Origin: an uncultured virus (IMG/VR IMGVR_UViG_3300008107_000208)
Lineage: Duplodnaviria > Heunggongvirae > Uroviricota > Caudoviricetes
IMG/VR virus record: IMGVR_UViG_3300008107_000208
Location: 57,206-77,205 of that record
DNA length: 20,000 nucleotides
Strand: one strand, 5' to 3'
Part shown: piece after piece, positions 1,655-15,295 of the stretch
Layout: every line of letters starts with the position of its first letter
Position numbering within the stretch: position 1 is the first letter of the stretch
The notes under the pieces: generated by a model
Database searches by the model: none
Told to the model about the DNA's origin: nothing
Seen by the model: only the letters and a program-made list of their open reading frames with translations
Program-made: the position numbers and the translations under genes

Positions 1655-1683
1655 TTGACAATCCCCAAATAATCCTTTATAAT
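1655..1683 (+). promoter_or_regulatory. Sigma70-type promoter, perfect consensus
   Basis: TTGACA (1655-1660), 17 nt, TATAAT (1678-1683). Confidence 0.9.
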
Positions 1684-1689
1684 AATCAA

Positions 1690-1790
1690 GTCTTTCAAAT
1701 CCTTGTATCTTTGGGAATGAAGACCCTCTCTGTGGTGGGAGAGATGAGTTGGTGGTTACTAGAGAGGGTCTTAGCACCCTCTCTTTTTTT
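1690..1790 (+). ncRNA. Candidate ~100-nt small RNA or attenuator leader
   Basis: Bounded by a perfect promoter and an intrinsic terminator. Three hairpins: 1690-1724, 1726-1743, 1761-1784. No credible ORF. Confidence 0.65.
1761..1790 (+). terminator. Rho-independent terminator
   Basis: AGAGAGGGT-CTTAGC-ACCCTCTCT 9-bp stem followed by a T run. Confidence 0.85.
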
Positions 1791-9876: not shown

Positions 9877-11054
9877 TGTCTTTAACAAGAACGACAACAA
9901 GTGAAACAGGTCCTTTTTATGCTTCTGGATCTATATCTTTTAGTTCCCTAAGAACTAACTTTAAGAGGACATCATCAGGAAACATAAAAGCATCTGAACT
10001 TAGAAGAAATACGAATGTTAATACAGCAGAACCAATAGTTCCAGATTGTACTGAAAATAGAACTTCTGGACCCTTGAGTGGTGGAATATCAACATCAAGT
10101 AACTTAAAATTATCCCAGTTTAGAAATTCTATAAAATATTATGATTTAACACAAGGATCTGACACAGATTTAAACTTAAATATTGCAGCATCCTCACTCT
10201 GGAATTCAAACTTACAATATAATATTGAAAAAAGAGTTTATTTATCTGGAACCAGTGGGTCAACAACTACATCAACACCAGCAGCAAGTCTAAATGCTAC
10301 TGCCGTTTATAATGTATTACTTCTTATCACTGGAGTAATACTTGGTGATGGAGGATCTGCAGGAACAGAAACGATAAATGGTGGAGATGGTGGTGATGCT
10401 CTCTATATCAACACAAATAGTACCGGAACAGTTACTGTAAGGACTTCTGGTGCCTCTGCACAAGTCTACGGCGGCGGCGGTGGCGGCGGAGGTGGTGGAG
10501 ATGGTGGAACAGGTGGTGGAGGTCAATATACTGTCAGTTATACAGAACGAGTAGGAACTGGATATAGTAGAGGTGGTCCTGGTAATTGTGGTTGCCCCGG
10601 TGGACAGTATTGTAGCGGCAGACAAGGTAATGGAGATAACTGCTGTGGTGGAGCATTAGGAACCCCTGGAGAATGTTTCTGCTGTTTCTATGATAGAACA
10701 GTATCTTATACTGTTAATACAGACGGTGGTGCTGGCGGTGATGGCGCAGATGGCGGATTGGGTCAAGGTTACCTACAGTCCAGAACATTTGGTGGAACTG
10801 GTGTAGGTGGTTCTGCTGGTGGAACTAATGCAGGAGCTGGTGGAAAAGGTGGAGATGGTGGAGATGGTGGAACTTGGGGACAAAATGGTGAAAATGGTGA
10901 TACTGGAAATACTGGTGTTAACGGAAACCGCACAAATGGATTGGCAGGTGCTTCAGGTACATTAGGAGGAACGGCAGGTAGAGCAGTAGCAGGTTCTGGA
11001 TATACTATTGATACTGCTAATGGAGTTGACTCTGCATACCTTGGTCTGAAGTAA
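9876..11054 (+). CDS. Glycine-rich adhesin-like protein (T-even gp38-like) with Cys-rich insert
   Basis: GxIxGxGG..G..GGxGGxAL...YGGGGGGGGGG and a GGxGG-rich C-terminus resemble the polyglycine sandwich of gp38 adhesins. TAATG-coupled to the fibre gene. Confidence 0.7.
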   Translation: MSLTRTTTSETGPFYASGSISFSSLRTNFKRTSSGNIKASELRRNTNVNTAEPIVPDCTENRTSGPLSGGISTSSNLKLSQFRNSIKYYDLTQGSDTDLNLNIAASSLWNSNLQYNIEKRVYLSGTSGSTTTSTPAASLNATAVYNVLLLITGVILGDGGSAGTETINGGDGGDALYINTNSTGTVTVRTSGASAQVYGGGGGGGGGGDGGTGGGGQYTVSYTERVGTGYSRGGPGNCGCPGGQYCSGRQGNGDNCCGGALGTPGECFCCFYDRTVSYTVNTDGGAGGDGADGGLGQGYLQSRTFGGTGVGGSAGGTNAGAGGKGGDGGDGGTWGQNGENGDTGNTGVNGNRTNGLAGASGTLGGTAGRAVAGSGYTIDTANGVDSAYLGLK

Positions 11055-11081
11055 GATACATAAACTAGATGATGGTTTGTA

Positions 11082-15150: not shown

Positions 15151-15283
15151 AACAAAAGAAATAATTGAGCAGGCAATCTGGCAGTGGTATTTTGAGCGTG
15201 GTCTTGATGTTCCTAACTGGAAAATGCAGAAAGATCCTGATTGGTGGACTGATTACTTGAGAGAGCTTGACAATGAAGATTAA
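15128..15283 (+). CDS. Small Trp-rich hypothetical protein
   Basis: Most plausible start is ATG 15128, giving the smallest overlap. Confidence 0.6.
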   Translation: MRKAKIIETKEIIEQAIWQWYFERGLDVPNWKMQKDPDWWTDYLRELDNED

Positions 15284-15295
15284 AGACCCTATAAT
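15267..15295 (+). promoter_or_regulatory. Sigma70-type promoter, perfect consensus
   Basis: TTGACA (15267-15272), 17 nt, TATAAT (15290-15295). Confidence 0.88.

Follow-up and report, generated by a model that had tools for sequence, protein, structure and literature searches.

A conserved, structured RNA of T4-like cyanophages that is probably encoded by an early small RNA gene

Introduction

Small RNAs are few in lytic phages, and fewer still in cyanophages. What, then, is encoded in an uncultured viral genome at a locus where a perfect promoter is followed by about 100 nucleotides of hairpins and an intrinsic terminator? The first-pass annotation had offered two answers, a phage small RNA or a riboswitch-like attenuator built on a perfect terminator/antiterminator switch. 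Here the two readings, together with several others, were weighed by comparison of the locus with its relatives in other phages. The DNA analysed, hereafter referred to as the window, is a stretch of 20,000 nucleotides, and all positions are those of the window unless a genome coordinate is given.

Results

Source of the window and parts of the transcription unit

The window covers the final 20 kb of a viral record of 77,205 bp (G000:C1:57206-77205), for which the completeness was estimated to be 37%, and its G+C content is 38.7%. Markers of T4-like cyanophages were recognized among its proteins, including a 1,749-aa tail fibre, 2OG-Fe(II) oxygenases and a UvsW-type helicase. The helicase shows 77% identity to its homologue in Synechococcus phage S-SKS1, and all the phage records that match it (419/419) are cyanophages or marine viruses. 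As judged from these sequences, the window comes from a T4-like cyanophage that has S-SKS1 and S-SRM01 among its relatives.

The elements named in the first-pass annotation were all recovered when the locus was read again: a perfect TTGACA-17-TATAAT promoter, a 9-bp terminator that closes the unit, a 12-nt segment complementary to the terminator and otherwise contained within hairpins 1 and 2, and GGTGG at two sites in loop and linker (1734-1738 and 1751-1755). The early, sigma-70-type promoter P1 is located at 1655-1683 on the plus strand, as are all other parts of the unit, with the −35 hexamer TTGACA at 1655-1660, a 17-nt spacer and the −10 hexamer TATAAT at 1678-1683 (12/12 in the promoter scan). 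From the promoter geometry, transcription should start at 1689-1691, 6-8 nt past the −10 hexamer and at the foot of hairpin 1; the match of the family covariance model (see below) starts at 1686. In the minimum-energy fold, hairpin SL1 (1690-1724) consists of an outer stem GUCUU/AAGAC, an internal loop and an inner 4-bp stem, and carries a 9-nt apical loop, UGUAUCUUU, at 1704-1712. Hairpin SL2 (1726-1743) follows, with the pyrimidine arm CUCUCU, the purine arm GGAGAG and the loop GUGGUG at 1732-1737. The linker between 1744 and 1760 is unpaired in the consensus structure and contains the second conserved motif, UUGGUGGU, at 1749-1756. The intrinsic terminator at 1761-1790 was the top site in the terminator scan, and is composed of a 9-bp stem with 5 G-C pairs (1761-1769/1776-1784), a 6-nt loop (1770-1775) and a T-run (1785-1790). 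The segment AAGACCCTCTCT (1720-1731), formed by the 3′ arm of SL1 and the 5′ arm of SL2, is the exact reverse complement of AGAGAGGGTCTT (1761-1772), and this copy-specific 'antiterminator' is considered separately below.

Downstream of the unit, a second perfect promoter, P2 (1802-1830; 12/12), serves a DUF7294 gene (1856-2050) and a Phd-like antitoxin gene (2053-2226), both assigned by protein family matches, and a cluster of three tRNAs (2239-2582; tRNA calls), all on the plus strand. The Phd/YefM-like antitoxin (PHROG 375; the Pfam match is below cut-off) follows DUF7294 and stands alone, with no toxin adjoining; the phage may use it to counteract a toxin of the host. At 2239-2326, an 88-nt tRNA-Ile (anticodon tat) was called by ARAGORN. 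At threshold, the Rfam tRNA model recognizes the other two tRNAs but not this one, which is an unusual or interrupted tRNA.

Perfect 12/12 promoters were detected in the window at only three positions, 1655, 1802 and 15267, all on the plus strand, while about 0.007 would be expected from 4^12. Promoter-like sites overall were not enriched in the window (56 vs 60.5 ± 8.1 in shuffles). The third perfect TTGACA-17-TATAAT promoter, at 15267-15295, lies within a run of small ORFs, and in the whole genome the promoter sites with at most one mismatch are all on the plus strand (10/10). The single-sequence folding energy of the RNA was unremarkable (z = −0.84; 38 of 200 shuffles were equally stable), and the case for RNA structure therefore rests on comparison.

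A family of related RNAs in cyanophages

Relatives of the unit were collected by scanning uncultured viral contigs. With a 16-mer from SL2, at least 118 loci were detected, or at least 120 together with the two loci of the genome itself (L001 and L002); among these, at least 82 carry the RNA element, in 49 distinct versions. A promoter-anchored scan of viral contigs, with the promoter plus the first seven letters of the RNA, added members with other SL2 sequences. Across three alignments, the number of distinct core sequences is at least 82. Covariance model R1 was then built from the MAFFT alignment A2 of 64 members. The model scored 101 bits at 1686-1788 of the window, and no other site in the window exceeded 12.7 bits. 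A second copy in the same genome, at G000:C1:16815-16918 (L002 1486-1589), gave 112 bits, and a score of 89 bits was obtained in the cultured freshwater Synechococcus phage S-SRM01 at 10973-11078. The S-SRM01 copy is unannotated and intergenic, and lies upstream of a glutaredoxin gene. S-SKS1, the closest cultured relative by helicase, has no copy (R1 best E = 0.35).

When the window copy was compared by BLAST with 50,697 phage records, the 39 records matched were all at E ≥ 2. With a member nearer to the consensus as the query against the same records, matches were obtained to S-SRM01 (two records of one phage) and to a 38-nt 3′ piece in ACG-2014f; most of the RNA is present only in S-SRM01 among these 50,697 records. 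In the search of the window with Rfam 15 at gathering thresholds, only two tRNAs matched, and the RNA unit was left unmatched. Even when E-values up to 10 were allowed for 1500-2000, the best overlap was L20_leader, with 14.6 bits against a threshold of 58.7 (E = 4.1), and the 6S RNA model found no match in the genome. The statement of the first-pass annotation that the family was not recognised thus agrees with the Rfam search. The genome paper of S-SRM01 (PMC8557907) mentions no small RNA, sRNA, promoter or glutaredoxin. A catalogue of 10,006 candidate viral RNAs is described in the accessible part of PMC10690425. These sequence comparisons indicate that the unit at 1655-1790 belongs to a conserved RNA family, which is absent from Rfam and from the S-SRM01 annotation.

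The SL2 16-mer is also shared by unrelated viral contigs (L003, L005, L011, L026 and about 25 more loci), mostly of ~30-45 kb in size. In these contigs the 16-mer forms the top of a longer hairpin, GCCUCGCUCU-GUGGUG-GGAGAGUGAGGC, for which no Rfam match and weak similarity to Pseudomonas phages were found. That two groups of unrelated phages share this loop with its closing pairs may be more than coincidence.

Conserved fold and invariant exposed motifs

The structure was tested with alignment A3, in which 61 distinct sequences were fitted to the model; fitting leans the counts towards the structure, and with this in mind 98.5% of cells in the three-hairpin fold form standard pairs, as compared with 92.1 ± 0.3 in shuffles, and compensatory changes on both sides were observed in 18 of the 25 pairs. 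None of 500 shuffles reached any of five structure measures, and registers slid along the alignment pair at 55-73%. From the plain MAFFT alignment A2 the three hairpins were likewise obtained, and 11 of 25 pairs showed compensatory changes. All seven model pairs of SL2 show changes on both sides in some sequences, and all eight model pairs of the terminator covary across the family. The outer stem GUCUU/AAGAC of SL1 is invariant (61/61), and receives no covariation support because it never varies; in the inner stem of SL1, one C-G pair is replaced by U-A in 10 of the 61 distinct sequences. Two pair positions are dominated by G-U (59/61 and 41/61), which indicates that the plus strand is the folded strand.

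Unpaired letters are more constant than the stem letters of SL2 and the terminator in these 61 sequences. In the SL1 loop UGUA(A/U)CUUU, all positions but the A/U position are kept in 58-61 of 61 sequences; the letters of the SL2 loop GUGGUG are kept in 59-61, and those of the linker UGGUG..GU in 53-59. Two or more GUGGUG/GGUGGU motifs are present in 55 of the 61 distinct sequences. L157, the most divergent member, carries its second GUGGUG in the terminator loop instead of the linker, which suggests that what matters is the display of GUGGUG twice in single-stranded form. Taken together, this comparative evidence indicates that a folded RNA between promoter and terminator is under selection. 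A G-quadruplex reading of the GG runs was also considered and rejected, as G-to-A changes in the purine arm of SL2 are matched by C-to-U changes opposite.

Transcription signals and coding capacity

The state of the promoter was counted from the 16-mer scan, which involves no selection for promoters. Among the 44 distinct loci with enough upstream sequence in this promoter-blind scan, a perfect TTGACA-N16-18-TATAAT was observed in 34 and a single mismatch in nine; 43 of 44 thus carry at most one mismatch, and the exception is one locus of the paralogue type without promoter. Family promoters are placed at the same distance from the RNA, with the −10 hexamer ending a few bases before GUCUU. Every family member ends in a hairpin followed by a T-run of 6-8 T. 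The common terminator types of the family are GGAGGG/CCCUCC and GAGGAGA/UCUCCUC, from which the lineage-specific version of the window differs. In 44 of the 49 distinct versions, the terminator is followed by TATAAAT, which, lying before the next gene, we take to resemble a T4-type late promoter. Upstream of the −35 hexamer, S-SRM01 (L252 ~1434-1447) and 14 of 41 distinct family loci share a palindrome, GTCAA-N2-6-TTGAC. Its right arm forms the −35 hexamer, and it is missing from the window's copy; the palindrome might serve as an operator or form the stem-loop in a junction of the PeSL type.

The first-pass annotation had called the unit ORF-free. This holds for conserved reading frames, but not for mechanical ones: three ORFs overlap the unit, at 1711-1896 on the plus strand (61 aa from TTG) and at 1649-1777 and 1695-1808 on the minus strand, and none of them is conserved. 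Since 2 nt are inserted before SL2 in a common variant, and linker lengths differ by 1-4 nt, no reading frame survives across the family. The only AUG (1717-1719) is replaced by ACG in S-SRM01, and by AAGG, AUUG or ACUG elsewhere. The unit thus has its own conserved promoter, a terminator and a covarying fold without a conserved ORF, as does a stand-alone small RNA gene.

In a search of public RNA runs, small shares of the stretch (0.04-0.07) were found in three runs and none in three others. Contigs from four RNA runs cover only 1761 onwards, with the DUF7294, antitoxin and tRNA genes of relatives, and leave 1200-1760 bare; such contigs cannot show transcript ends or strand.

The terminator/antiterminator complementarity

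In the second reading of the first-pass annotation, the unit is a cis-acting attenuator or riboswitch: the segment 1720-1731, once a signal has released it from hairpins 1 and 2, would pair with the 5′ arm of the terminator, allowing read-through into the antitoxin and tRNA genes. Folding of the window copy is compatible with such a switch. The 12-bp helix is exact, with a duplex energy of −20.2 kcal/mol, and the antiterminator is the minimum-energy fold of transcripts ending at 1772-1780 (−24.9 to −27.6 kcal/mol); at 1772, its energy is −24.9 kcal/mol, against −16.0 kcal/mol for SL1 plus SL2 before the arm is made. In the nascent folds of this copy, the mean probability that the terminator arm pairs upstream is 0.99. 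The full-length RNA, however, prefers the terminator by 3.3 kcal/mol (−30.9 vs −27.6), and the probability of the antiterminator falls to 0.002.

The comparison between the two folds does not support a family-wide switch. Across the 61 sequences, the antiterminator fold gave 77.3% pairing, as compared with 76.6 ± 0.5 in shuffles, of which 78 of 500 reached the observed value, and a slide by +1 still gave 75%; pairing at the level of ~77% is what any pyrimidine arm facing a purine arm gives. Changes on both sides were found in 4 pairs vs 4.7 in shuffles, so that there is no excess of covariation; the three-hairpin fold is supported by covariation and the antiterminator fold is not. The longest Watson-Crick helix is 12 bp in one sequence of 61, that of the window, 8 bp in one other and 0-6 bp in 59: the exact 12-nt complementarity between 1720-1731 and 1761-1772 is absent from the other 60 sequences, which counts against the switch. 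Pairing of the arm upstream with a probability above 0.5 was predicted for only 15 of 64 nascent folds, often with other partners, and the value for the paralogue is 0.06. Control of the antitoxin/tRNA genes by read-through is also needless, because the perfect promoter P2 starts at 1802, 18 nt after the T-run, and read-through would add little; neither is there a fixed downstream gene, as neighbours vary between copies and have promoters of their own. Altogether, we consider attenuation quite improbable as the function of the unit.

The 3′ arm of the terminator repeats 9 nt of the SL1/SL2 junction (1723-1731 = 1776-1784). To judge from the sequences, the window terminator is evidently a replacement in this lineage, and the exact complementarity would stem from that replacement. 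A kinetic contest of the two folds is conceivable for the window copy on the basis of the modelled energies. Its effect would be, at most, a somewhat leaky terminator in this lineage, and not the mechanism of the family. The 'perfect switch' is accordingly treated as a lineage-specific by-product, which should stay out of the annotation.

A second copy, variable neighbours and mobility

The second copy lies 42 kb upstream in the same genome. In its core, 57 of 58 letters are identical to those of the window copy, and both flanks and the terminator differ. It starts 20 nt past the stop codon of an 89-aa ORF, and no promoter is recognisable in front of it, the best candidate having 4 mismatches. 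Its terminator is followed by the promoter TTGACT-17-TATAAT of a tail-fibre-like gene. This copy must be either made by read-through as a 3′ UTR or silent, and it may represent a 3′-UTR form of the RNA. At the position of this second copy, a related contig (L047/L165) carries instead the P1 promoter and the RNA of the window.

The gene downstream of the RNA varies, being DUF7294 in the window, the tail-fibre-like gene at the second copy and glutaredoxin at most loci, each with its own promoter. Among the closest 80 glutaredoxin loci, the RNA is present just upstream in 46 and other sequence in 34; one of the 46 carriers, L320, contains a decayed copy (40 bits). L126, which shares its contig with L125, has a glycine-rich coding sequence joined at GGTGG to the promoter, SL1 and the first half of SL2, and the fusion looks like a recombination joint inside the RNA gene. 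The composite motif known as PeSL is seen at the flank of the unit, where the terminator at 1761-1790 is followed by the promoter at 1802-1830; it describes the flank, and not the RNA. By analogy, the element appears to behave like the small cassettes of T4-type phages that are bounded by such terminator/promoter junctions.

Discussion

Alternative explanations

Several other explanations of the conserved unit were weighed. If it were a promoter-terminator spacer, shuffled as a PeSL-type cassette and functionless as an RNA, its bounding by terminator/promoter junctions, its optional presence (46 of the 80 closest syntenic loci) at varied positions and the fusion of its 5′ half to a glycine-rich gene at L126 would all be expected; PeSL are described in the available portion of PMC4122927 as composite terminator/promoter motifs mediating indels. 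The compensatory changes in SL2 and the near-invariant loops of the 61 sequences, however, represent a selection that no spacer needs, and we regard this explanation as improbable. A put-like processive antitermination, in which the 5′ hairpins bind RNA polymerase and let it pass this and later terminators, would fit the location directly after an early promoter and the order of two conserved hairpins followed by a terminator, which is reminiscent of put of phage HK022. Against this, the paralogue is situated at a gene end and not behind a promoter, all members retain a strong terminator with 6-8 T, each of the two copies in the genome has a new promoter behind it, and no sequence or model match to any Rfam family was obtained; put-like action is very improbable.

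The 35-nt SL1 could also be viewed as a mimic of the host CRISPR repeat, by which an RNA anti-CRISPR traps Cas proteins. The likeness is one of shape only, in that the 35 nt have paired ends, form a small hairpin and carry an 8-nt tail that finishes with GAAGAC, and we presume that cyanobacterial CRISPR repeats are similar in this respect. A degenerate but strict 25-nt SL1 pattern, by which diverged repeats would be missed, gave three single matches in 185,579 species genomes. These matches are at chance level: none of the three belongs to an array or comes from a cyanobacterium, and the model gave them 16 bits at best. We regard an anti-CRISPR role as extremely unlikely. Finally, a leader peptide with tandem Trp codons could be read from AUG 1717, which is in frame with UGG UGG at 1750-1755, and the +2 variant puts the first motif in frame. 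This reading has next to no probability: the start codon is lost in relatives (ACG in S-SRM01; AAGG, AUUG and ACUG in others), length changes of 1, 2 and 4 nt disrupt the frame, and the alignment already contradicts it.

Proposed function of the RNA

The small-RNA reading of the first-pass annotation is supported by the family with its covarying stems, invariant loops, retained promoter and varied downstream genes, and by the lack of an Rfam match. We consider it likely that 1655-1790 is a complete gene for an early, structured, trans-acting non-coding phage RNA of ~100 nt, which uses exposed motifs. Transcription by the host RNA polymerase would begin early, at the consensus sigma-70-type promoter, and stop at the intrinsic terminator of the unit itself. 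The RNA is predicted to fold into SL1, SL2 displaying GUGGUG, the linker with the second motif UGGUGGU, and the terminator hairpin. We infer that it acts in trans through its invariant exposed stretches, most likely by binding to two sites on one partner, since an early promoter, a compact fold, a strong terminator and invariant loops are combined with variable neighbours. The partner might be a host RNA-binding protein, which would be titrated, or a C-rich RNA. Two-site binding is favoured over antisense action because two short identical motifs are present ~17 nt apart, without one long seed, and we think it more probable that a host factor is titrated or recruited than that the RNA acts by base-pairing.

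Complementary sites within the phage were also searched for, and none was conserved. ACCACC, the complement of the motif, is not enriched at translation start regions of the phage's own genes (1 vs 1.5 expected). On the plus strand of the genome, GGTGG occurs 178 times and its complement CCACC 40 times, which shows that the phage's own transcripts are poor in motif-complementary sites. A k-mer search of the phage genome for complements detected a perfect 14-nt complement of 1718-1731 at G000:C1:39161-39174 (L256 ~1662-1675), where about 0.03 matches were expected. It is located inside a 517-aa gene, whose S-SRM01 relative is annotated as M23 peptidase, and its first 12 letters are AGAGAGGGTCTT, as in the 5′ arm of the window copy's terminator. 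As a conserved target this site was rejected: it is missing from the S-SRM01 homologue, and it involves stem letters, not loops.

One specific form of the titration model is a decoy with two sites, produced within minutes of the onset of infection, in which a host RNA-binding protein is captured by GUGGUG/UGGUGG and perhaps also by the SL1 loop, the suspects in cyanobacteria being the small Rbp proteins of the RRM type. In this precise form the proposal is tentative and rather unlikely. As a lead towards such a partner, cyanobacteria possess RNA-binding proteins of the RRM type and are devoid of cold-shock-domain proteins. The control genomes are consistent with this: RRM_1 was detected in Synechococcus elongatus and one other of 14 control genomes, and S. 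elongatus was without a cold-shock domain. Neither RRM_1 nor the cold-shock domain was found in either phage genome searched. One host protein of this type, Rbp3, is reported to contact folded elements with UUNGN motifs near mRNA 3′ ends (PMC12232666). The linker sequence UUGGU fits this loose UUNGN pattern. In the excerpts of literature listed as matching GGUGG, UGGUGG or GUGGUG, mostly eukaryotic proteins are concerned, and no bacterial or phage RNA-binding partner was among the matches listed. If the decoy reading is true, host mRNA handling would be redirected to the benefit of the phage, and lytic cyanophages would have their first example of a protein-sponge RNA.

Whatever its partner, the family looks like one with a real function in host takeover: it combines consensus early promoters with covarying stems and invariant loops, and at least 82 sequence variants of it occur across freshwater T4-like cyanophages. 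What the window adds to the family is a promoter-less paralogue, a replaced terminator and an explicit negative test of the switch. Both S-SRM01 and its host are cultured, which makes it feasible to map and delete the RNA, to employ it as a bait and so to test directly what it binds.

Comparison with known systems

Trans-acting small RNAs encoded by phages, with their own promoter and intrinsic terminator, have been reviewed (PMC12197685, as far as its accessible part shows). The cyanophage RNA is like these in being a stand-alone gene of ~100 nt without an ORF, with a host-type promoter and a Rho-independent terminator with a U-tail. It is unlike them in that it matches no Rfam 15 family, that its source is a lytic T4-like cyanophage, and that it conserves two short G/U motifs and a 9-nt loop instead of one long seed. 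CsrB and RsmZ are RNAs that titrate a protein through repeats of the motif A(N)GGA. The cyanophage RNA likewise repeats its motif in a hairpin loop and a single strand, ~17 nt apart, and keeps the motif while the stems covary. The motif is, however, GUGGUG/UGGUGG and not A(N)GGA, only two copies are present, and the binding of a protein is putative.

With attenuators and riboswitches, the window copy alone shares mutually exclusive helices that compete for the 5′ arm of the terminator. In contrast to these systems, the family does not conserve the alternative helix and has neither a conserved domain for binding a ligand or tRNA nor a constant gene downstream, where an independent promoter is located. 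The PeSL (promoter-early/stem-loop) cassettes of T4-type phages, as outlined in the portions available of PMC2839356 and PMC4122927, are similar in that a terminator hairpin is directly followed by an early promoter, as at 1761-1830 and at the second copy, and in that the element is optional and moves within variable regions. The difference lies in what the element is: PeSL is the junction itself, whereas the cyanophage unit is a conserved structured RNA held between a promoter and such a junction.
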